From Promethearchaeota archaeon (GTDB taxonomy: Archaea > Asgardarchaeota > Lokiarchaeia > Sigyniarchaeales > SOKP01), in assembly GCA_030599585.1 (NCBI GenBank), contig JAUVNS010000004.1, positions 64,001 to 128,000 on the forward strand: 64,000 bases of DNA, read 5' to 3'. The first letter of the stretch is position 1, and each line of letters starts with the position of its first letter. The notes below the pieces were generated by a model that saw only the letters and a list, made by a program, of their open reading frames with translations, did no database searches and had not been told where the DNA came from. Shown here piece after piece: positions 41,142 through 53,172 of this stretch. A program made the translations under genes and the position numbers.

Positions 41142-41774
41142 ATGGTGAATATTGGATTACTTGGCGATATTAGCGCTGGTAAAACTAGTATTCTTCGCCT
41201 ATTTGTAAGATACTTAAAAGTTGGAGACATAGAACAAGTAAAAGGGGGGGAAAAATGCGTTACGATAAAAGTGGATTTTTCTGGAGAGGCAACAGTCCCC
41301 GGAGGCGATAAGGAAGATCGCTTAAACCAAAAAGAAACTAAAACAATCCATCCTAATCGAGTGGTATTTAGAGAAGTCAAATCCGGAAGAGCCCATACAA
41401 TCTTCGCACCTGGTGGAGATCGAGCTAGAAGCGTTATTCGAATGGGAATTATAACGATATCCCGAATCGCAACCCAGATAGTAGCGGTTTTTTCATGCGA
41501 TAGACCTCTGAAAACCCAATTTGAGTTTTTTAGGGATGTGAGGTTCTTTCCAGACAATATTAGCGTTTGTATAAATAAGGTTGACCTACTTAAGGGCGAT
41601 CTAAAGGATGAAATAGAGAAATTGGAAGCAGAAATTAAAGATTTTTTCAAGCAGAGAAAAATTACGATCGTAGAGACATTTGTAACATGTGCTGAAAAAA
41701 TGGAAGGGTTCGAGGATGTCCAGATTTACAACGATCGAGTCGCAGAGATGCTCCTAAAAATAACTACTCAATAA
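41142..41774 (+). CDS. Ras-superfamily small GTPase with atypical G3
   Basis: G1 GDISAGKT; G3 region FAPGG (no DxxG); G4 NKVD; G5 TCA. Confidence 0.8.
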   Translation: MVNIGLLGDISAGKTSILRLFVRYLKVGDIEQVKGGEKCVTIKVDFSGEATVPGGDKEDRLNQKETKTIHPNRVVFREVKSGRAHTIFAPGGDRARSVIRMGIITISRIATQIVAVFSCDRPLKTQFEFFRDVRFFPDNISVCINKVDLLKGDLKDEIEKLEAEIKDFFKQRKITIVETFVTCAEKMEGFEDVQIYNDRVAEMLLKITTQ

Positions 41775-41793
41775 CCAATTAATCTTATATCTC

Positions 41794-42309
41794 TTATTCT
41801 TTTAATTTTAAAGCTAACCTTACAAAAAGTTTTTGCAAGTCAAGTTTGTAACCAATAAGAGGAGTTAATCTGATATTAGTAGTTTTTTTATCTAGCTCTA
41901 AAAACCCTTCTTTTTCTAATATTTTTATATCATCTTTGACATCCTTTTTATTTCTCAACGCTCTAATCTCCTGAATTGAGGTATGTCCCGAATTTTTAAG
42001 GCAAGAAGTTAAAACACATAATAGTGTAGCTGATAAACTCGGTCTACCTTCAAAAGGATTAGCAGAAATTAATTCCGTTAGTTCATTATCATAATTTATA
42101 AACCAATGTGAATTTAACGAGTTGAAGATTATTTGAAGTCCCAATGGCTCGAGATATTTAGATAATCCCGTTAATAAATCTTGGAAGTAAATTGATTTGT
42201 TCTTATTCTTAACATTTAATGACTTCAAAATCTCTTTTTTGGTTGCCCCTATATGATGGATGCTTTTTTTTCTACTTAACATATACATTAAAACCGATAT
42301 TTCGTTCAT
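41794..42309 (-). CDS. KITE (ScpB/Nse3-like) tandem winged-helix protein
   Basis: 171 aa with two WH-like halves (LSKYLEPLGLQI..HWFI; DIKILEKEGFLE..IRLTP); last gene of the smc run. Confidence 0.65.
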   Translation of the reverse strand: MNEISVLMYMLSRKKSIHHIGATKKEILKSLNVKNKNKSIYFQDLLTGLSKYLEPLGLQIIFNSLNSHWFINYDNELTELISANPFEGRPSLSATLLCVLTSCLKNSGHTSIQEIRALRNKKDVKDDIKILEKEGFLELDKKTTNIRLTPLIGYKLDLQKLFVRLALKLKE

Positions 42310-42322
42310 TTATTAAATAACC

Positions 42323-42976
42323 TCATATGTATAGCGTATTTGTATCTTTTTGATATTTTATTTTGCCTAACTGGAGTAGATGTAAAAGGTATACGAATTG
42401 TTCATAAATCTCTATTTGATCCAACTCGTTATCGAACACATCTTCAAAAAAGCAAGGAAGTTTTTTTTTAATTTTGTCATAAAAAGCGCTAATCTTTTCC
42501 GTATATTTATACTTTGGAACTTCTAGTAAAAATTGATCGTTAGTTTCCTCTCTAGTCAAGTGTTCAATTGTAAAATGCGTTATCCTTTCTTTGATATAAC
42601 GATTAGAAGCGTAATCTAGAAATTTCAAAGAAATTGGTTCGAAATGAAATGTTTCTCTCCAACACCCGCGAAATATGTCGGATATTTGGTCCTCGTTGGG
42701 GTGAGTTTTCAAAAAATCTTCAAACTTCTTTTCTATATCTAACGAACTTAGCAAATTCTTTAACTCTTCAAATTTATCGTTGAGCAATTCAACTGCACTT
42801 TTAAAGCTTTGCGAATAATTTTCGATATTGTATATGCTAATTGAGTTCTTAATTTCGCTAAAAATAGGATTAAGTTGTAACTCTAATAAATTAATCTTAC
42901 CTGAGAGGACATCATCTTTTATAAGCGCTATCCTTTTATTGATTTTTTCTGATAAATCTAATTCCTCCACTTTCAC
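42323..42976 (-). CDS. Kleisin (ScpA/Nse4-like)
   Basis: GKINLLELQL..SAVELLNDK N-terminal motif; FEDVF..FVYLLHLLQLGKI C-terminal WH; overlaps the smc stop (GTGA). Confidence 0.72.
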   Translation of the reverse strand: MKVEELDLSEKINKRIALIKDDVLSGKINLLELQLNPIFSEIKNSISIYNIENYSQSFKSAVELLNDKFEELKNLLSSLDIEKKFEDFLKTHPNEDQISDIFRGCWRETFHFEPISLKFLDYASNRYIKERITHFTIEHLTREETNDQFLLEVPKYKYTEKISAFYDKIKKKLPCFFEDVFDNELDQIEIYEQFVYLLHLLQLGKIKYQKDTNTLYI

Positions 42977-45900
42977 CCTTCCTTAACGATTTTAGGATTA
43001 AAAATAGTCGACACTTCATTTTTTCCTACTCTAGCAACTCCAATTAACTTGTCTGCAAGAAGATAAAGAGCGTTTGATGATTTTGGTAAGAATAGTAGCA
43101 TTTGAATAGAATTATTCTCAAGAGTTGATTTTATCATGGTATACGAAGCTTCCGAATTCCTATCATCCAAAAACATCCCAGCTTCGTCAAGCATTACAAT
43201 AGGTGAGCTTTTAATCTCTAAAAGGGATAAAATTAACCCAATAGATATCATGGAAATCTGACCTCCGCTTAAAGCCTTGCATGATTTTAACTGATCCTTA
43301 GAGATTGCAGCTTTAATCTCTATTCCTAAATCTTCAAATTTCCCTATTAACTCAAGCGTACAATAAGCTTTAATATCCGTAGACTTAAATTTATCATTGA
43401 TTCTCGAATTTAGTTTTTTTAAAACTAGATGGAATTTGTCGAAATAAGTGTCTTCCAATTTATTTTCAGTTTTAATCGCCGATTTTATATCTATTTCTAT
43501 CTCTCTCTGATTTTTTGTAATTTCTTTTAAACCCTTTAGAATTTGTTCTTTTTCGACCAAGATACTATCATCTATATCGAAATATTTCAAGAGCTCTTTG
43601 TCGATGTTCAATAAATCTCGATTTATCTCTTGAATAGGTCGAAGTGATATTACTTCTTCTTCAATTAACGGACCAATTTCAGATATGACTCGCTTTAAGT
43701 CATCTTCTTTGACCCCTAATTCGCGTGAAATTGAAGTCTGCTTAAAAATCTCTTGTTCTAACCTTAAATTTAGTTGAATATAAGAAGAATCAATTTCTTT
43801 CTTTTCATTCAGGGTTATTTTTTTCTTTTCTTTTAACTCTGAGATGACATTGTTGACATTTAATAATTCTTCTTCAAGGTTTTCCAAGGCTGTATAAATT
43901 CTAAAAGCTTTTTTATCTGACTTTTCGAACGCGTCTTTTTTTGAATTATAATTATCTTCAGATGACTTTAAATCGCTGCTTTGGTAATTAATTTCCTCAC
44001 TGATCTCTTTTAGAGATTCGAGGTTTTCATTAAATTTTTCTTCCCATTTTTTTAATTCGTTGTTGTAATTATTTAGTTCACCGGGAATTTCCTTTATTCT
44101 TTTGTTCCATTCAAAGAATTCGGGGTCTTTCTGAGACTCTAAATCGTTGAGTTTTTGGGACACTTCGTTTAGGTTGTCATCAAACTCTTTATTACGCTGT
44201 TCTAAAGAGTAAATCAAGTTATAATGATGATTCTTCTTAGTAGTTAACCTTTCTTTTTGTTTAAAATTGAATAGAAGATCGGTAAAAGATTCTTTTTTTC
44301 TGAGGATTTCGTTTTGGTTCTTATCAAGTTTAGTTAGGTCTACTTTTAATTCTAAAATTTTGCTGTTTAACGATTTGATTTCTTTCTCCAAGAAATTTGA
44401 TTGCTCTTTCTGCGTTCCTGCGCTCAACAAGCCTTTTAACCTTTTTACATGAGGACTTTCGTAGACATATTTATAAGATATAATTTGTTTCCCTTGTAAT
44501 GTCACACATTTTCCCTTAAAACTACTGGTTCTGTAAATTTCTTTAGCGGACTGGTAGTCATCAACTACAATGCAATTTTTGATTATCGAATAAATAACCT
44601 TTTGGACATCGGAGTCTCCATTAATAATTTCAACCAGTTCGACTAAATACCCGATTACACCATTCGCAGCGATTTTTGGAAATGCTGTAATGTTGCTTTT
44701 TTTTGGAATATAAATGTTACAATATGCGTTATATTTCTTTTTTAGCCGCTCCATTAAATTTAATGTATCCCAATCACTCGTAATAAAGCTATTTAGTAAT
44801 CTTTCTCCAAAAACAGATTCAATTGCGTAGCTTAACTTATCATCATATTTTAGGTATTCAATTATAGGGCCCTTAACTCGATCTGATAATTCTCGTTTAC
44901 TAATTTCTTCTTTGAGAATGTTAATATTAGGCGAGAGTACAATTTTTCGTTCTCTTAACGCAGTTTGTATTCGTTTAAATTCTCTTATTTTTTTAGACTT
45001 ATCATATTCTATTCTTTCAATTTCAGCTTCAAATTTTAGTAGCTCTACTGTCACTTTTTTAAGATTTATGTCTAACTGTTTTAGTAGATCCTCTGAAGGG
45101 TTTTCTAAAAACCATTTGTTTTTAGATAACTTGTGGTCGATATCCTTCAAACTCTGAAAAATGTCGTTAATATCTTTTTTAATATCTTCAACATTATTTT
45201 CGTTTTCTTGAATGGTTCTTAGAATAACTTCCCTCTGCTGCGATAATTTGTTGTACTTCTCTAAAAAAGCTTCATTCTCTTTAATTTTCCTTATTAAATC
45301 ACTCTGTTCCTTGATAATACCATCGATTTCGTTTTTAATAAAATCTTTTTTTTTTTTAATTACATCGATTTTCTCGTCAACATTCTTTTTCTGATTTCGA
45401 ATATTCTCTAAGTTTTTCTTTTTTTCTGCTATGGTTTCTGCTAGTTTATCCAAGTCACTCATAGCATTAATTTTCTCTTTTTGCCAAGCACTAATTTCAT
45501 TTATAAATTCCTGTTTCTTATACCCTAATACACCTAACTTTTCTGAAAAAATGCTAATCTTGTTATCAATATCAAGAATAGTTTTCTCTTTTTCATTGAT
45601 TTTATTTTGATATTCATCAACTTCTTTTCTGTTAATGTCAATTTGGTTTTCGATTTCATTAAGCTTGACTTCTAATTCTTCAATTTCTTTTTGTAGTTCT
45701 CCTTTATTTGCCCAAAGTAACTCATCTGTGTATTTTTTTCTAATATCTAATAATTTATTTTTCTCGGTCAATCGTTTTAATTGTGGTGTCAACAGATCCA
45801 AGTTAATATTTAGAGCATTTTTTCTTGAAATTAACGATTGAAATTCAGCGTTTAATGCCAATACGCCTTTTTTTTGTTGGAGGATTTCATCTCTAAGTCC

Positions 45901-46464
45901 TTTTAATCCAATTCCCTCTTCTAGAAATGAGCAAAGTTCTATTGGTTTTAAATTTTTTATAGCATCAATTTTTCCTTGGCTTACGAACGCAAACTGATTA
46001 TCAGGATTGATATCTAGCTTGGAGACTAGTTTTTGAACTTCAGTTACGTGAGCTTTCTTGAATTCTTTGTCCTTATCAAGTTGTAATTCAAAAAAAGGGG
46101 ATTTCCCTTTTACTACAGTTCTTCGAATTTTAATAATCTCGGTGTGATGTTGAATGTGAAGCTCTACCATAGCGTGTGCTTGGTCGTTTCTTATAAAATC
46201 AGACCATTTTTTATATCTTTCATCTCTTTCGTTACTCCCTAAAGCAAATTTAATAGCTTGAAAAATTGAAGTCTTACCGCTCCAATTCGGACCAATTATT
46301 AAAACAAAACGAGGAATACCTTTATTTTTTTCAGTTGAAAAATTTACTTCATCCCTTTGGAAAGATAAAAAATTCTCTAATATAACCTTGCGTATATAGG
46401 TACCAGTCTCGATTAGTGATTTATCTTGGGTGTCAGTAGTGTTTTTCTTACTGGAAGAAGCCGT
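42973..46464 (-). CDS. smc: SMC ATPase, Smc5/6-like (1163 aa, probable ACG start)
   Basis: The frame extends 98 codons past the track start and contains YIRKVILENFLSF and Walker A GPNWSGKT. Q-loop INPDNQFAFVSQGKI; hinge VKGPIIEYL..AIESVFG..LNSFI; LSGGQ; LDEAGMFLD. Confidence 0.9.
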   Translation of the reverse strand, partial: TASSSKKNTTDTQDKSLIETGTYIRKVILENFLSFQRDEVNFSTEKNKGIPRFVLIIGPNWSGKTSIFQAIKFALGSNERDERYKKWSDFIRNDQAHAMVELHIQHHTEIIKIRRTVVKGKSPFFELQLDKDKEFKKAHVTEVQKLVSKLDINPDNQFAFVSQGKIDAIKNLKPIELCSFLEEGIGLKGLRDEILQQKKGVLALNAEFQSLISRKNALNINLDLLTPQLKRLTEKNKLLDIRKKYTDELLWANKGELQKEIEELEVKLNEIENQIDINRKEVDEYQNKINEKEKTILDIDNKISIFSEKLGVLGYKKQEFINEISAWQKEKINAMSDLDKLAETIAEKKKNLENIRNQKKNVDEKIDVIKKKKDFIKNEIDGIIKEQSDLIRKIKENEAFLEKYNKLSQQREVILRTIQENENNVEDIKKDINDIFQSLKDIDHKLSKNKWFLENPSEDLLKQLDINLKKVTVELLKFEAEIERIEYDKSKKIREFKRIQTALRERKIVLSPNINILKEEISKRELSDRVKGPIIEYLKYDDKLSYAIESVFGERLLNSFITSDWDTLNLMERLKKKYNAYCNIYIPKKSNITAFPKIAANGVIGYLVELVEIINGDSDVQKVIYSIIKNCIVVDDYQSAKEIYRTSSFKGKCVTLQGKQIISYKYVYESPHVKRLKGLLSAGTQKEQSNFLEKEIKSLNSKILELKVDLTKLDKNQNEILRKKESFTDLLFNFKQKERLTTKKNHHYNLIYSLEQRNKEFDDNLNEVSQKLNDLESQKDPEFFEWNKRIKEIPGELNNYNNELKKWEEKFNENLESLKEISEEINYQSSDLKSSEDNYNSKKDAFEKSDKKAFRIYTALENLEEELLNVNNVISELKEKKKITLNEKKEIDSSYIQLNLRLEQEIFKQTSISRELGVKEDDLKRVISEIGPLIEEEVISLRPIQEINRDLLNIDKELLKYFDIDDSILVEKEQILKGLKEITKNQREIEIDIKSAIKTENKLEDTYFDKFHLVLKKLNSRINDKFKSTDIKAYCTLELIGKFEDLGIEIKAAISKDQLKSCKALSGGQISMISIGLILSLLEIKSSPIVMLDEAGMFLDDRNSEASYTMIKSTLENNSIQMLLFLPKSSNALYLLADKLIGVARVGKNEVSTIFNPKIVKEG

Positions 46465-46484
46465 CTTTTATCTCACCTACTTAC

Positions 46485-47768
46485 TTAATACTTTCCAAAC
46501 GCTCTCTTTAAATTATCGATACGTTTCTTTGCTTTTTCTAAATTGATTTGAGCCATCTTTGGACTATCGTTTAGAATAAACGCATATTTTGCCATTATTT
46601 TTCTCTCAATTTCTTCTAAATGCTCGTTCTTGTTTAATTTATCAATTATCAGCACAAGCTCGCTGTAATTTTTTGATACTGCGTTTTCGTACAACTGATT
46701 TAACATAAAATCTGTGAATCTTTCCTCTTTAATTTCATTCCTTAAATTTTGAGCGTAAACATTTCTATTTTCTGCATTTCTTCCATACATAGAATTTTTG
46801 TTAGAAAATTCATCGCTTTTGAAGAACTCTGAATCTTTTATATTTTGTTTCGTTTCTGGAGTAGTAGGAATATACTCTCCTGATTCAATCAAATTAATCA
46901 AGCCATCGGTAATTTCATTACTCGACTCATTTAATTCAGAATTGAGAAAATGTTTAAATATCCCTATTCTTAATAGTTGAATTAAGTCTTTTACCTCCCA
47001 AGTTTCTGTGTAATCTACTAATGTCTTGATATCAAACACAATTTTCGGATTTTTTTCAGAAAAAGCTCTAAATATCGTTTCTCTTTCCGCCTTATCTAAA
47101 ATTGGAACTTTGATAAAAAAATCAAACACATCAAAAATCAATTGCGAACTTTCTTTGATTTCCTTCATTGTATTATTTATCCAGATTAATATCAATCCAT
47201 CTTTTACAAAATTTGCCCTATTCTTATAGGATACCATAAAAAGTTCTAACAAATTTTTCCCATTTAAGTTAAGGCTGGAAAATTTCTGTTGGTCTAAAAC
47301 TAATAATCCTTTTATTTTAGATTGTTCAGGATCGTGTTCATTTGATTGAGGTTTTTCGTTGTTTTTTGTTTCATTTTCTCTATTCTTCACCGTTCGTTTT
47401 ATTACATCCTCTAAAATGTCAATTAGATTAGAAATAAAGACGTCAGGAGCCTTGACGATTTCCTCACGATTCAATTCAAAGAAATTTAAATAGTAATTTT
47501 TAGATATTAATTTTAAATAATCTACGATATCAGTTCCAGGATTTACTTTTATCAATATCGCACCTTTAGGGTGAATAAACTTATCATAACTCTGAACAAC
47601 TGATTCCTCGTCATTTGTTAAAACAATTTTCAGATAATTTATAATATCGTTATACTTATCTCGATAAAAAATCTCCTCTCTATCAATTTCAATTTCATTT
47701 GGTGTAATTACCCGATAGTACTTAGAGAATTCTATATCGTTATCTATATCTTCCATAGAGAAGTTCAT
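46485..47768 (-). CDS. Degenerate (probably ATPase-dead) AAA+ fold protein
   Basis: PKGAILIKVNPGTDIV (cf. PKGILLYGPPGTGKT), FDFFIKVPILDKAERETIF, DIKTLVDYTETWEVKDL (cf. lid motif LAxxTEGFSGADI). Confidence 0.65.
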   Translation of the reverse strand: MNFSMEDIDNDIEFSKYYRVITPNEIEIDREEIFYRDKYNDIINYLKIVLTNDEESVVQSYDKFIHPKGAILIKVNPGTDIVDYLKLISKNYYLNFFELNREEIVKAPDVFISNLIDILEDVIKRTVKNRENETKNNEKPQSNEHDPEQSKIKGLLVLDQQKFSSLNLNGKNLLELFMVSYKNRANFVKDGLILIWINNTMKEIKESSQLIFDVFDFFIKVPILDKAERETIFRAFSEKNPKIVFDIKTLVDYTETWEVKDLIQLLRIGIFKHFLNSELNESSNEITDGLINLIESGEYIPTTPETKQNIKDSEFFKSDEFSNKNSMYGRNAENRNVYAQNLRNEIKEERFTDFMLNQLYENAVSKNYSELVLIIDKLNKNEHLEEIERKIMAKYAFILNDSPKMAQINLEKAKKRIDNLKRAFGKY

Positions 47769-48009: not shown

Positions 48010-48267
48010 TTATTTTTTTCCGCCAGTACCATGCATACAGAAAAATCCGCCTTCTAGTTCGTACTTTGGAAATAATCCACAACCAAAGCAACTACAACCA
48101 TAATCCTTAACTTCGGACATTGGTTTTTCAGTTTTTCCACGGGAACAAAACAATGCATGTGGCTCAAATTCGTTTAATTTATTAGGTTTGAACGATGGAC
48201 AAGGACCACAGAATTTACGACATTCACTCATACTTTCCTCGTCATCGGGAACCGGTTTTGGAGTCAT
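48010..48267 (-). CDS. DUF2769-like Cys-rich small protein
   Basis: C..CGPCPSF..LFCSRGK..GCSCFGC..Y.L..FFC..G. Confidence 0.78.
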   Translation of the reverse strand: MTPKPVPDDEESMSECRKFCGPCPSFKPNKLNEFEPHALFCSRGKTEKPMSEVKDYGCSCFGCGLFPKYELEGGFFCMHGTGGKK

Positions 48268-48431
48268 ATTACTTAAACCTATATTTAGATGTGTTTTTAA
48301 TATTTATTAAAATTCTAATTACTATCGAAATGTCCTTTTTAGCTATTAAATTTAATATTTATAGATTATTAATTTTTAGGCGTATTGATACTTCCTTGAT
48401 GTATTCAACACAAAAAATGGTTAGAATTAAT

Positions 48432-48824
48432 TCATTCTAAAGCTAAATTTTGATTAAAAGTTGTTAAGTTATTCTTCAATTCTTCTTTAAATAGGTGGTA
48501 GAAGGTGAATTTCTGCTTTTTATATCCTTGAATTAACCCCACAGCAACTAACTTTCTTAAATGATGAGATATTGTTGATTGTGATTTATTCAATATCGTT
48601 TCTAACTCACAAACGCACCTATCTTGCTTTTTCAAGGCATTAATAATGATTAGTCGCTCTTTTGATGCAATTGCAGATGTAAATCTTTCAATAGCGTCTA
48701 AATTCTTATTCTCTTCCAACATTTTGCCCAATTTTAGTAACTTATCGAAATCAGGGTTTGAATCTGAACAATCTTTACAGTCACATAACATCTTTTTAAT
48801 TTCTTGAGCTCTTTTTTGTTTCAT
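48432..48824 (-). CDS. arsR: ArsR/SmtB-family repressor with As(III)-type alpha3 site
   Basis: RLIII..L, CVCELE, SQSTISHHLRKL..GLI; extra N-terminal CDCKDC. Confidence 0.92.
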   Translation of the reverse strand: MKQKRAQEIKKMLCDCKDCSDSNPDFDKLLKLGKMLEENKNLDAIERFTSAIASKERLIIINALKKQDRCVCELETILNKSQSTISHHLRKLVAVGLIQGYKKQKFTFYHLFKEELKNNLTTFNQNLALE

Positions 48825-49037
48825 AAGGTGCCAATTTTAAAAATATCTCTTGTATATATAGAATGAATAAATCGATAAATATAAATTTATAGGATTTGAA
48901 GCTCCATATTCACTCAAATCGATAACCTTAAATTTAACGTAGAATATTATATCTCAAGTTTCATCAACAAATAACATGAATTTTATAACTAAAATCAAAA
49001 AGGAATATAGAGTTAAAAAAGATAATTCAAAACCAGA

Positions 49038-50159
49038 TTGATGCTTATGGTTGAAGATGGTATTGAAAGTGAAGCAATAAATAATTTAGATAAATCAGAA
49101 GAAGCAAAACAAAAATCAAGAAAGATTAATTATTTCGAAAAGCTTCTTCCGATTTGGGTGGTACTATGTATCATCATTGGTATACTTCTCTCCCAATTTA
49201 TACCCGAATTAAGTCAAGCAATAAATTCTTTGCAAATTGGAGGTATTTCTATACCAATTGGAATTTGTTTGTTTTTAATGATGTACCCTGCGATGTTAAA
49301 TCTACAAGCATCAGAATTAAAAAAACTACGCAAAAACCCAAAACCTATAGTATTAACATTAATTTCTAATTGGCTCATTGCTCCTTTTGTGGGTTTGGCG
49401 ATGATTAATATATTTCTACCTGGTACAACCGAAGATATACAACAATTAAAAGTTGCGATAATTTTACTCTCAAGTTCGCCTTGTACAGCTATGGTGTTAG
49501 TGTGGGGATGGATGGCAAAAGGTAATCAAGAACAAAATGTAGTTAATACAAGCTTAAATACGATTACTATAATCTTTTTGTACGTAGGAATGGTTTCTTT
49601 ATTAACTAGCATTCAAAATATTCTCACGCCTGGGATTGTTGTTGATCCATGGTTGTTGTTAATCTCTTTAGTATTCTTCATTGGTATTCCGTTGTTATTA
49701 GGAATTGTAAGCAAGAGATTAATTATCACTTCGAAAGGATTATCGTGGTTTAATGATAGCTATAAACCATTTGTAGGAAAAATTTCAATTGTTGCTTTAT
49801 TGACAACTTTAGTGGTTTTGTTTTCCCTAAATGGCGATGTTCTTATAAATAATCCTGATTTGCTGCTACTAATCTCAATTCCACTCTTAGTAGGTTTTGT
49901 AATAGTGGTTGCTTACAACGTTTTTATTACTAAGATTTTTAAAATGAAGTATAAAGAAGCGATTATAACAATAATTATCGGCTCATCTAGTCACTTTGAA
50001 ATTGCTATCGCAACAGCCGTCGCAATGTATGGCGTTGGGTCCATAGCGGCTTTAGGAACTACAATGGGTTTATTTTGGGAAGTACCTGTTATGCTAGCAA
50101 TGGTATATCTTGGAAAATTCCTTGGGAAACGAGGATTTTGGAAATCTAATTCAAATTAA
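49038..50159 (+). CDS. acr3: Acr3-family arsenite efflux transporter
   Basis: LFLMMYPAM, NWLIAPF, PCTAMVLVW, SSHFEIAIA, EVPVML. Confidence 0.93.
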   Translation: MMLMVEDGIESEAINNLDKSEEAKQKSRKINYFEKLLPIWVVLCIIIGILLSQFIPELSQAINSLQIGGISIPIGICLFLMMYPAMLNLQASELKKLRKNPKPIVLTLISNWLIAPFVGLAMINIFLPGTTEDIQQLKVAIILLSSSPCTAMVLVWGWMAKGNQEQNVVNTSLNTITIIFLYVGMVSLLTSIQNILTPGIVVDPWLLLISLVFFIGIPLLLGIVSKRLIITSKGLSWFNDSYKPFVGKISIVALLTTLVVLFSLNGDVLINNPDLLLLISIPLLVGFVIVVAYNVFITKIFKMKYKEAIITIIIGSSSHFEIAIATAVAMYGVGSIAALGTTMGLFWEVPVMLAMVYLGKFLGKRGFWKSNSN

Positions 50160-50196
50160 CAAAAACATATTAAAAAACTAAATAGGATTGATAATA

Positions 50197-51864
50197 ATGG
50201 CAGTAGTGTATATGCGTAAACTCGAACAAGAACCAGATAGCTACGATTCTAAATTCACAGCACTTACAAAGGGAGTAAATTTAAGCGTTAGAGAATGGAT
50301 ACTTAATAAAACTGGTAATTCTCAATCAATTCTGGAGGTTGGATGTGGGACTGGAAGCCTCGCCTCTAAAATGGCGTTAAAAGGAAATGATGTTACTGCG
50401 ATAGATATAAATTTTCAAATGATAAATCACGCAATGCAGAATTTTCCTCCAGATTTAAAGGAAGGAACGCTCTTATACCAAACTGGATCATTTTCCAACA
50501 TGCCTGTAGAAGAAAGGTCTCAAGATTTAGTCATTAGTACGTTTATGCTTTCAGAACTTCGACCTTTTGAACAACAAATCTTCCTTAGAAATGTTTGGAA
50601 AGTATTAAAACCAAATGGAAGATTATTAATCGCAGCAGAATTTATTCCAGATGGTTTTTGGAAGCTAATCTTTAAAATAAAAAGATGGAGATATAAAAAG
50701 AAACTTAGGCGTCTTAAATTAAGGAGCACTTTTCTGCTAAAATGGTTCTTTAGATATATCGAACCAATTGGATTCAAAATCAAAGCAAAAGAAGACTGGA
50801 AACACGGAACAATTCAAGCTCTCGAACTGATAAAACATGACGATATAGAAATTAATGAACCAGGATATTATCAACCTAGCCCAAAACGATTCAAAGGGAT
50901 AATATCGCAGCTAAGAATATATCGTTGCATTTACACAGGCCAAATTGATCTCGTTCCAATCGATCCTGGTATTTACAAATCTGGTAATCCTACTGAATCT
51001 TCTCCTATAATAGTGACAGCTAATTATGAATTCACCTACATCAAAGTAATGAGAGATCTTAAAGGTATTGATGCATGGGTATTATGTGTTGATTCTAACG
51101 GAATTAATGTGTGGTGTGCTGCGAGAGGAAATGATTTTGGAAATAATCAACTAATCGAGGCTGTTGAAGCTACTGGTATTGAAAGATTAACTAATAAAAA
51201 AACATTAATTCTCCCACAATTATCTGCAGGAGGAGTAGCCACTCCAGAATTGCAGAAAAAATCTAATGATTTTTCTTTTAGAGTTGTTTATGGACCTGTT
51301 TGGTCTAAAGATTTACCCGAATATCTTGAAAAACGCCCTGCTCGAAAACCCGATAGAATGAAGCTTGCTAAATTCACTCTAAAACATCGATTTCGTGGTT
51401 TTATCACGCACACAACATTTCTATTAAGAAAGATTTTCATGTTACCTCTCATAAGTTTATTCGTTGTGTTTCTTATCCTTAACTCTCTTAATATAACGGC
51501 TAAATTATGGTGGGTTGGTGAATTATTACTCTGGATAGTTACAGCAAATTTCATCATAACTTTTACATATCCGATTGCAAATTTCACTCGTCGGTTTATT
51601 ATTAAGGGAATTTTCTTTGGGACTTTGAATGTTTTTATTTTGGGAATGTTCTCTTATTTATTTCATAATTCGATATTTTTCACACTTATGAACATTAGTT
51701 TTTTCTTTTGGATTTCATTTTTTTCAACAATGTCGTTAAGTGGGTATACAATGGCTACTAGCCCTAGTGAAATACAAGAAGAGTATCCCATTTTTAGTAT
51801 TTTAAATAAAGTTTTATTAACCATAAGTTTGATTTCATTAGTGATTGGAATCGTTTTTCTCTAA
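50197..51864 (+). CDS. Fusion: class I SAM methyltransferase + HgcA-like corrinoid domain + C-terminal TM bundle
   Basis: N-terminal ILEVGCGTG..IDIN..VLKPNGRL. Then PGIY..GNP..SPIIVTANYEFT..AWVLCVDSNGINVWCAARG..LILPQLSAGGV..VVYGPV..DLPEYL, followed by about 5 hydrophobic helices. Confidence 0.88.
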   Translation: MAVVYMRKLEQEPDSYDSKFTALTKGVNLSVREWILNKTGNSQSILEVGCGTGSLASKMALKGNDVTAIDINFQMINHAMQNFPPDLKEGTLLYQTGSFSNMPVEERSQDLVISTFMLSELRPFEQQIFLRNVWKVLKPNGRLLIAAEFIPDGFWKLIFKIKRWRYKKKLRRLKLRSTFLLKWFFRYIEPIGFKIKAKEDWKHGTIQALELIKHDDIEINEPGYYQPSPKRFKGIISQLRIYRCIYTGQIDLVPIDPGIYKSGNPTESSPIIVTANYEFTYIKVMRDLKGIDAWVLCVDSNGINVWCAARGNDFGNNQLIEAVEATGIERLTNKKTLILPQLSAGGVATPELQKKSNDFSFRVVYGPVWSKDLPEYLEKRPARKPDRMKLAKFTLKHRFRGFITHTTFLLRKIFMLPLISLFVVFLILNSLNITAKLWWVGELLLWIVTANFIITFTYPIANFTRRFIIKGIFFGTLNVFILGMFSYLFHNSIFFTLMNISFFFWISFFSTMSLSGYTMATSPSEIQEEYPIFSILNKVLLTISLISLVIGIVFL

Positions 51865-51916
51865 TAAAAAATAATACAAAAATTAAAAAGAAATTGATAT
51901 TTAAGAGGTATGTATA

Positions 51917-52279
51917 ATGACTGAAGCAGAATTTAAAGCAAGTTTAAGTAAATTATCTATAAAGGATTTTAAAATATTTATAAATGAAAGCTTATGCAAC
52001 AAGTGTGGTTTATGTGCAGAAGTGTGTCCTTTTGGGCTTCCACAACAAACAGATTCCGGAAAATACGATATTAAAAATCATGAACTATGTACTGAATGTA
52101 GTGCTTGTAAGAGGAATTGCCCCGTAAATGCGATCATTATGAACGAAAAGAAGGGGTGCGGTTGTTTATGGAACGCTAGAGCAAACGCAAAAAATTCCAA
52201 ATCAGGAAATAAAGACATAAATAATTGTGGTTGTGGTCCAGAAAACGAAAGTGAAACAACTTCAAGTTGTTGCGGTTAA
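51917..52279 (+). CDS. HgcB-like 2[4Fe-4S] ferredoxin with Cys-rich tail
   Basis: CNKCGLCAEVCP, CTECSACKRNCP (cf. HgcB C(M/I)ECGAC), GCGC, terminal CGCG..SSCCG. Confidence 0.85.
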   Translation: MTEAEFKASLSKLSIKDFKIFINESLCNKCGLCAEVCPFGLPQQTDSGKYDIKNHELCTECSACKRNCPVNAIIMNEKKGCGCLWNARANAKNSKSGNKDINNCGCGPENESETTSSCCG

Positions 52280-52340
52280 AATGGTATCAAATTTTACTAT
52301 AATTTTGAACTAAAAAACATTGATTTAAAAGGTGGAAAAA

Positions 52341-52790
52341 ATGGAAAAAGAAGAAATAAAAATATCGGTTAACGAAAACCAAAATAGTCAAATAAGTTTA
52401 GAGGAATCATGCTGCGGAACGTCAAATTCTTGTTGTGGTTCATCAGATTCTTGTTGTGAGGGTTCAACTTCAAAGGAATCGCCTAATACTCAAGAAATTA
52501 ATTTGAAAGAGACAGCAAATGTAGATACGAATAAAATATCTGTAGATGTATATGTTCCTCTAAACGCTTGCGAATGCGTTTGGTCTCAATTTATGAACCT
52601 TGTATTTTCGGCACTTAGCCCTTACATGAAACACATAAGGTTTGAAACAAAAGACTTAGACTCTGACGAAGCTCGAAAACTTAATTTAAATGGAAATTGC
52701 GTTGTCGTTGATGGTACAAAGAAATACATTACTTCATTCGCATTAAAGAAAGATTTACCTGTACTTCTAAAGGAAAAAGGGCTATTATAA
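52341..52790 (+). CDS. Cys-Cys-rich ArsD/thioredoxin-like putative metallochaperone
   Basis: SCCGTSNSCCGSSDSCCEG; VDVYVPLNACEC; CVVVDG. Confidence 0.6.
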   Translation: MEKEEIKISVNENQNSQISLEESCCGTSNSCCGSSDSCCEGSTSKESPNTQEINLKETANVDTNKISVDVYVPLNACECVWSQFMNLVFSALSPYMKHIRFETKDLDSDEARKLNLNGNCVVVDGTKKYITSFALKKDLPVLLKEKGLL

Positions 52791-52833
52791 AATTAAGTTG
52801 TTTATTTTTTTCTCTATAAAAAGGTGATTTTAG

Positions 52834-53172
52834 ATTAAAAAAATTAAATTAACAATTTTTGGACCTGAAAAAGAGCTCGCAAACGGAATTGAGTACGAAG
52901 TATCTATCGAGGAAGAAGGATCGATAATTGAAGCATTGGCTGCTATAGATAGACAGCTCCTTAACAACCCCAAGCTTTCACCGTTTCCATTGTATAAAGG
53001 ACTAATTAAGAGCTATCTCCAATTAATCTGGGACCCCCAAAAAAACGCTATTTACGAAGACTGTGCAAGTAATGCCTATGGGCCGAACAAAGAGTTTATG
53101 CCTCTTCTGGATGATGTAAACTTCAACCTTTATCAGAACAGCGATATAACTCTTATAGTCCACGCCGATTGA
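52834..53172 (+). CDS. Beta-grasp (MoaD/ThiS-like) protein lacking GG, ATT start
   Basis: AGGTGA + 6 nt + ATT, directly after an in-frame TAG. Translation KKIKLTIFGPEKELANGIEYEVSIEEEGSIIEAL..NLYQNSDITLIVHAD, then TGA TGA. Confidence 0.65.
   Translation: MKKIKLTIFGPEKELANGIEYEVSIEEEGSIIEALAAIDRQLLNNPKLSPFPLYKGLIKSYLQLIWDPQKNAIYEDCASNAYGPNKEFMPLLDDVNFNLYQNSDITLIVHAD

Follow-up and report, generated by a model that had tools for sequence, protein, structure and literature searches.

What HgcAB and its paralogues that do not methylate mercury natively do has long been asked. The locus described here lies in a 64,000-nucleotide stretch of DNA from a Promethearchaeota archaeon of the class Lokiarchaeia (assembly GCA_030599585.1, contig JAUVNS010000004.1, positions 64,001 to 128,000; hereafter the window, whose own numbering is used). 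Here arsR and acr3 diverge, and acr3 is followed by a gene fusing an S-adenosylmethionine (SAM) methyltransferase to an HgcA-like corrinoid domain and a membrane helix bundle, by a gene for an HgcB-like ferredoxin, and by a gene for a Cys-rich protein. What is such a fusion doing in an arsenic regulon? The original prediction, made from the sequence alone, took the cassette for a single pathway of metal(loid) methylation and export. Our reading is narrower: methylation of As or Sb may be the physiological role of the fusion and its ferredoxin, a tentative assignment to which we give a probability of roughly 0.4. Lokiarchaeia, two cultured Asgard species included, would then hold a corrinoid-dependent As/Sb methyltransferase as a second route unrelated to ArsM.

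The fusion is not an assembly artefact, as full-length homologues exist and a close orthologue is found in 110 of the 161 genomes of the class, a few of them split by contig ends. All 120 top homologues cover 95 to 100% of it, at 64 to 93% identity, and more distant full-length fusions occur in three other Asgard families. Its methyltransferase occupies residues 6 to 212 of the open reading frame (ORF), the likely start of which, judged from the homologues, is the ATG at 50197, giving 555 amino acids (aa) as in those proteins. The closest named homologues are from Lokiarchaeota/Promethearchaeota, and the public DNA datasets listed for the locus are sediment, marine sediment and cold-seep metagenomes; no RNA dataset is among those listed, which speaks neither for nor against expression.

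The corrinoid part resembles HgcA without reaching its family thresholds, scoring 184.5 bits on NF043039 (cut-off 285), 178.4 bits on NF040863 (cut-off 275; reference HgcAs score 342 to 446) and 79 bits on CdhE (cut-off 306). Cys310, the equivalent of the cobalt-ligating Cys93 of P. mercurii ND132, is invariant. In the predicted model five helices at 398 to 557 form a C-terminal membrane bundle (predicted local distance difference test, pLDDT, 77; predicted template modelling score, pTM, 0.70), and among fold matches the HgcAB model 9a0b_A ranks first. The fusion therefore shares with canonical HgcA (NF040863) the Cys-on cap helix and the membrane bundle, with SAM as the expected donor in both. 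However, its cap helix, NVWCAARG, fails the high-stringency HgcA motif N(V/I)WC(A/S)(A/G/S)GK (PMC10087281), Arg313 and Gly314 being present in all 61 Lokiarchaeia fusions, and canonical HgcAB needs no fused class I methyltransferase, whereas the Lokiarchaeia protein carries one.

Trees place the protein outside HgcA proper. CdhE forms a separate branch (support 100 in a quick tree of 146 columns), which bears out the claim that the corrinoid domain is HgcA-like and not CdhD/CdhE. Eighteen canonical HgcA rows, picked by motif among the matches of this query, form one side at 100/100 with the fusion excluded; it sits opposite, on the side of the CpaM fusions and the NF043039 proteins, within an Asgard clade (96/94) that falls outside the 100/100 NF043039 clade. 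A sister position of the Lokiarchaeia clade to canonical HgcA nonetheless survives the approximately unbiased (AU) test (p 0.40). Of the HgcA label, then, the Cys ligand, the membrane bundle and the HgcA-like grouping stand, and the canonical motif, the NF040863 cut-off and membership of the canonical clade do not; by its sequence, the central protein is one predicted to work like HgcA yet is no member of HgcA. In passing, we observed a tandem second C-terminal corrinoid-binding domain in several Asgard CdhE/AcsC proteins of about 600 aa (L132, L135, L138-L140, L142, L144, L145).

The fused methyltransferase is of the CpaM type. It scores 141.5 bits on NF043040, below the cut-off of 180, with the next-best methyltransferase model at 50 bits; the related fusions P0133, P0142, P0143 and P0145 exceed that cut-off. 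At 34% to the CpaM of Methanococcoides methylutens versus 25% to the ArsM of its own genome, the domain has SAM motif I, Asp73 and the N-terminal signature M..LE..P..YD in common with stand-alone CpaM, and its cofactor sites are intact and invariant in 61 Lokiarchaeia fusions. Class I SAM motifs, N-terminal signature and linkage to an HgcA-like corrinoid protein are thus all present as in CpaM. ArsM (NF008823) also has a SAM-dependent class I fold and in related genomes fills the same operon slot and has a MarR-type regulator in common with the fusion, but identity as ArsM was rejected (33 bits vs 263): the As-binding cysteines of ArsM are absent, the single Cys of the fused domain lying within motif I. 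Any As methylation would need the corrinoid.

Can the methyltransferase charge the corrinoid? The three modules recur elsewhere in other arrangements. A separate CpaM stands directly upstream of fused HgcAB in five of five HgcAB-like genes checked (M. methylutens and four others), a CpaM-HgcA fusion with a free ferredoxin occurs in this window, in Abyssubacteria and in other metagenome contigs, and triple fusions were also found. For the split M. methylutens pair, a homologue and not the fused protein of the window, a predicted complex sets CpaM on the corrinoid domain (residues 82-93) with a score of 0.63, the best of three controls reaching 0.00. Of 80 solved pairs 58 reach the mark for such scores, as do 2 of 110 mismatched ones; contacts agree between runs to at least 69%, the partner has a pLDDT of 77 or more, and the alignments were built by us. 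The model does not itself show binding. The split and fused permutations also back such loading, and SAM is the methyl donor to cobalt in HgcAB (PMC11588087). Taken together, these make a SAM-to-cobalt methyl relay very probable, in keeping with the earlier proposal that a dedicated methyltransferase loads the corrinoid.

The fusion represents a variant, widespread in Asgard archaea, of the CpaM plus HgcAB-like system already catalogued, set apart by its fusion point, its HgcB-type thiols and its arsenic-regulon context. The known system of P. furiosus and M. methylutens (NF043040 with NF043039) has the same three modules in the same order, lies on the same side of the tree and likewise lacks the cap-helix Lys, and Hodarchaeales fusions of this type are already named CpaM by NCBI. 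In contrast, NF043039 proteins fuse the ferredoxin to the corrinoid protein, whereas the Lokiarchaeia fuse the methyltransferase instead and leave the ferredoxin free; the fusion of the window scores below both cut-offs and belongs to the separate Asgard clade described above, and the Asgard ferredoxin has 4 to 8 tail cysteines that are mostly missing in the NF043039 family. M. methylutens and P. furiosus, carriers of fused HgcAB, produce no methylmercury. Literature searches that did not extend to Haft and Gwadz 2023, Smith 2015 or a 2023 ISME J article on hgcA in Asgard archaea yielded no paper describing the fusion.

The ferredoxin bears on what the methyl group might be handed to. Its cysteines (C27-C37 and C58-C68, forming two CxxCxxCxxxC clusters; C81/C83; C118-C119) follow the HgcB layout, with a Cys about 12 residues past the second cluster, a C-terminal Cys and adjacency to an hgcA-like gene. 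Canonical HgcB has C(M/I)ECGA and GVGC, whereas the ferredoxin of the window has CTECSAC and GCGC, and its 47 bits on NF040864 fall short of the 99-bit cut-off. The HgcB-like label thus stands in that this is the best model and the metal-handling cysteines are there, and falls short on the motif and the cut-off. In every Asgard locus with enough flank the ferredoxin gene is directly 3' of the fusion, and GC[G/R]C occupies the Cys73-equivalent position in 75 of 75 Asgard partner ferredoxins, most of which end in CC. A separate downstream ferredoxin with these thiols is as in canonical HgcB, where the Cys73-equivalent and terminal CC thiols are required for Hg methylation in ND132 (PMC7305189). 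By comparison, 102 of 120 HgcAB-like fusions have zero Cys after the clusters, and the non-methylating M. methylutens protein is also without tail cysteines. The Asgard clade therefore looks built for handling a thiol-bound metal(loid), and a substrate of that kind is the probable one. Since Asgard ferredoxins keep thiols that are mostly missing from HgcAB-like fusions, the negative methylmercury cultures need not apply to them.

Evidence for arsenic comes from the neighbourhood. Of the 110 fusion-bearing Lokiarchaeia genomes, 49 have acr3 no more than 5 kb from the fusion, and these are spread over eight genera and two families; acr3 is elsewhere in 53 and was not found in 8, and 49 is a lower bound because of contig breaks. 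The order arsR-acr3-fusion-ferredoxin occurs in two closed genomes, taken to be those of P. syntrophicum MK-D1 and Ca. L. ossiferum B35, and across 31 loci the divergence of Acr3 tracks that of the fusion (Mantel r 0.78, with kin that are not independent). The gene-order survey thus upholds conservation of the arsR/acr3 linkage across both families. What found no support is the view of the cassette as a fixed single pathway: fusion and ferredoxin form a module able to move, and roughly half of the genomes have it away from acr3.

Two exchanges of genes point to arsenic as well. In eight genomes where the full fusion was not found (g11 accounts for six, two of them 98 to 99% complete; contig ends cut two of the eight loci), arsM takes the place that follows acr3 and precedes the conserved downstream genes; in one genome the order is acr3-arsM-fusion-ferredoxin (G170). 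The second exchange involves a Cys-rich MarR with an invariant CxC in the helix-turn-helix (HTH) region and a CC, which in this genome is single-copy and directly upstream of arsM (L129:5541-6020, G000:C21). Of 26 arsM loci, 13 have it next to arsM, and in genus g12 it stands before the fusion in 8 of the 11 loci without arsR; another order is MarR-arsM-DUF166-fusion-ferredoxin (G145). This MarR is a candidate archaeal metalloid sensor on the pattern of its cysteines and neighbours. Like the MarR(ars) regulators (10.1101/2021.08.12.456183) it has conserved cysteines and stands beside arsenic genes; it differs in its own CxC in the HTH region and separate CC, and is found outside this cassette, before the genome's arsM. 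Altogether arsR, acr3, arsM or the Cys-rich MarR is beside the fusion in 43 of 52 Lokiarchaeia loci. The acr3 linkage, the arsM slot swap and the MarR swap are three kinds of neighbourhood evidence backing the As/Sb context that had been proposed.

Other genes recur in these operons. A DUF166 gene is often inserted, separating either arsR from acr3 or arsM from the fusion (L013:6148-6879 and 14 other loci); in this genome it is elsewhere (C52). ArsC-like LMWPc genes (TIGR02691 125 bits, cut-off 174) occur in Lokiarchaeia ars operons (L055:10952-11383, L057, L063, L064, L083, L084, L169, L172, L212, L215), Asgard lineages having been reported to be without arsC (PMC10060404). A second methyltransferase of about 268 aa, about 30% to ArsM, is repeatedly directly upstream of arsM (L191, L196, L200, L201, L188, L183).

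How the module may be regulated is suggested by ArsR and its putative operator. As claimed, the regulator carries a CVC site and diverges from the acr3 run, and it scores above its family cut-off. Compared with the R773 type (Cys32/Cys34/Cys37), CVC is present in alpha3, the third Cys is replaced by Glu, and an N-terminal CxCxxC is additional; two Cys suffice in R773 ArsR. CVC is kept in nearly all linked ArsRs, and arsR adjoins acr3 in 17 of 18 further acr3 loci. The palindrome TCAAAT-N12-ATTTGA matches at a mean of 10.8 of 12 positions in 32 intergenic regions, versus 8.6 in shuffles (maximum 8.9). The site in the window is the best in the genome by position weight matrix (30.3, next 21.8), having itself been used in building that matrix. 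Both arsR and the palindrome are kept beside the fusion in loci that lost acr3; the palindrome was not found upstream of relocated arsR-less fusions, nor at this genome's arsM. The acr3 gene is the only one found in the genome. Its product scores 8 bits below the TIGR00832 cut-off and has PCTAMV (Cys149), SSHFE and WEVP, which we take to be the conserved Cys/Glu motifs of Acr3.

We propose that the fusion and ferredoxin would act as a self-charging, membrane-anchored corrinoid methyltransferase. The ferredoxin would bring cobalt down to Co(I), the fused CpaM domain with bound SAM would methylate it, and the Cys-ligated methyl-Co(III) would be the source of the methyl for a soft metal(loid) that the ferredoxin binds through its GCGC and terminal CC thiols. 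In Lokiarchaeia the ArsR that controls the only acr3 would also repress this module, and for that reason As(III)/Sb(III) is the most likely physiological substrate. The module might then be a B12-dependent alternative or supplement to ArsM, while Acr3 would export inorganic As(III) in parallel; the proposal that Acr3 exports the methylated product found no support. Methylcobalamin with glutathione methylates arsenite (PMC2801198), so corrinoid As methylation by the fusion would be chemically feasible.

Several observations weigh against As/Sb methylation as the native role. In 11 loci of other family members checked, no acr3, arsM or arsC was nearby and one ArsR-family gene was; loci of the Asgard families f16, f19 and f31 are also without acr3, arsM or arsC, with an ArsR-like gene upstream in 8 of 14 f31 loci. 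ArsM is encoded in 37 of 110 genomes with the fusion versus 17 of 51 without, and this genome has both, so that mutual exclusion at the genome level was not found. Few lineages show the slot swap, and few the MarR swap, so each counts as few independent events, and the four-cysteine-type arrangement of ArsR could, on its sequence, also sense Cd, Pb, Zn or Hg. Canonical hgcAB, too, is often flanked by arsR, acr3, arsC or arsM (PMC7438021) and responds to arsenic, yet neither mono- nor dimethylarsenicals were produced by P. mercurii ND132 (10.1101/2022.10.17.512643). The lack of ArsM and ArsC genes in the cassette, to which the original prediction drew attention, is real and yet weak as evidence, because a full ArsM is encoded elsewhere in the genome (C21; NF008823 344 bits vs 263). 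The genome also has four LMWPc-family genes, three of them in tandem (G000:C26:32731-34768) and not close to the ArsC-like family of ars operons.

The strongest competing explanation, although we consider it unlikely, is that the fusion is a SAM/corrinoid methyltransferase or reductive dehalogenase-like catalyst acting on something other than As, Sb or Hg, and sits in the ars regulon as a general thiol/metal stress gene or a passenger. Most relatives outside Lokiarchaeia have no ars genes nearby, one being behind a TetR, and in Lokiarchaeia roughly one copy in two lies apart from acr3. Flavin and FMN reductases are frequent neighbours, and halomethane dehalogenation by Hg methylators is described in a 2026 preprint (10.64898/2026.04.26.720869). 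A passenger or unrelated catalyst accords poorly, however, with two unrelated Cys-rich regulators, tied to acr3 and to arsM, each preceding the fusion, with arsM taking its slot, and with Asgard ferredoxins whose metal-binding-type thiols are invariant.

That the fusion is a genuine mercury methylase carrying its own SAM loader, with an ArsR answering to Hg or to soft metals generally, is quite unlikely. The parts needed for Hg methylation (PMC7305189) are all present, namely the cap-helix Cys, the membrane bundle, the Cys73-equivalent and the terminal CC; the AU test allows the sister position to canonical HgcA; and the M. methylutens protein is without tail cysteines, so its negative may not transfer. 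Against this, the high-stringency hgcA and hgcB motifs (PMC10087281) and both NCBIfam cut-offs failed, the protein is outside the canonical HgcA group (100/100), and the genes around it are those for As and not mer genes. As a side activity of the module, methylation of Hg is plausible, at somewhat below even odds.

Arsenic chemistry other than plain methylation seems improbable to us: Co(I) might reduce pentavalent (methyl)arsenicals or demethylate methylarsenicals, feeding As(III) to Acr3. The fusion does lie directly behind acr3, ArsM can be in the same operon (L081, L082), and deleting hgcAB in ND132 raises sensitivity to As(V) but not to As(III). An intact, obligately linked SAM methyltransferase nevertheless points to methyl donation from SAM, and several of these operons already hold ArsC-like LMWPc genes. 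Finally, an ordinary CdhD/CdhE fragment or chance fusion beside an ars operon has almost no likelihood despite the PF03599 CdhD match, since CdhE branches apart, the genome's real CdhE is elsewhere (439 bits), and fusion and linkage are conserved in hundreds of sequences.

The CC-rich protein downstream was thought to deliver the ion to the fusion. Its model has a core with pLDDT above 90 and a thioredoxin fold (Z 9.8, root-mean-square deviation 2.1, 78 residues), with an invariant CxC at Cys80 and Cys82; the CC-rich N-terminal tail is of low confidence, variable, and missing from most homologues. Searches of Pfam and of PDB sequences gave no match. ArsD has CCxxxxC where this protein has CxC, and is absent among the fold matches listed. 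Together with the ORF at 52834-53172, which is missing from the original prediction, the gene stays behind acr3 in 11 of 11 fusion-less g12 acr3 loci. As it follows acr3 and the CC tail is absent in most homologues, delivery to the fusion is unsupported, and a role as the fusion's dedicated chaperone likewise found no support in this neighbourhood evidence; both genes belong to the arsR/acr3 operon. The second ORF is 63% to one homologue across 109 aa and recurs in 24 loci with the fusion and in most of those with acr3. Its probable start is an ATT after an AGGTGA site. ATT, ATA or ATC starts soon after a GGTGA Shine-Dalgarno-like site were seen repeatedly (window 52821-52836, L050, L051, L054 and many arsR, L055-L059), and standard ORF calling would miss or truncate such ORFs on account of these apparent starts.

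All six ORFs described originally are present where they had been placed, as an ORF re-check and family scans show (Table 1); from acr3 onward the plus-strand gaps are 28, 52 and 52 bp. The DUF2769-like identity of the gene after arsR was confirmed, and such a gene is behind arsR in about 12 loci, including one acr3 locus without the fusion. Upstream of arsR, a conserved run at 41142-47768 holds a 427-aa ORF, an SMC-like ATPase, a ScpA/ScpB-like pair and a small GTPase-like ORF, labels judged from sequence appearance; the SMC-like coiled-coil ATPase is 1065 aa and its homologues 1130 to 1168 aa, so its true start may be further upstream.

Table 1. Features of the arsR-acr3-fusion locus, in window coordinates
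Feature	Position	Strand	Evidence
DUF2769-family small Cys-rich protein	48010..48267	-	PF10967 E 3e-10; accessory gene downstream of arsR
ArsR/SmtB metalloregulator	48432..48824	-	NF033788 65.7 bits vs cut-off 55; DRCVCELE
Putative ArsR operator TCAAAT-N12-ATTTGA	48914..48937	.	Imperfect palindrome overlapping TATA-like tract
Acr3 arsenite/antimonite efflux transporter	49038..50159	+	TIGR00832 274.8 vs cut-off 282.8 bits; PF01758
Methyltransferase-corrinoid-membrane fusion ORF	50188..51864	+	558 codons, no internal stops
Fusion N-terminal CpaM-type class I SAM methyltransferase domain	50197..50823	+	NF043040 141.5 bits
Fusion HgcA-like corrinoid domain and C-terminal membrane helix bundle	50935..51864	+	NF043039, NF040863, fold match, trees
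Cap helix NVWCAARG of fusion, with Cys310	51106-51129	+	
HgcB-like 2x[4Fe-4S] ferredoxin	51917..52279	+	NF040864 best match, 47 vs 99 bits
Thioredoxin-fold Cys-rich protein, 152 aa	52332..52790	+	Model; no Pfam family
Conserved ORF of about 112 aa, no family	52834..53172	+	Homologue comparison; absent from the original prediction

The Asgard clade offers a handle on the natural role of HgcA-related enzymes, and with the methyl donor in the same chain, the HgcB thiols kept and a defined regulon, it points to candidate substrates open to direct assay. Whatever the substrate, these genes exceed 100 bits on an HgcA model yet fail its motifs, which matters for surveys of hgcA in which Asgard archaea are counted as mercury methylators. 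The comparisons made here suggest a second, B12-based way of methylating As or Sb. If either is methylated, this would be a new route of metalloid cycling in marine and seep sediments, and As/Sb chemistry, if it is the native job of an HgcA-related lineage, would explain the recurring linkage of hgcAB to ars genes.

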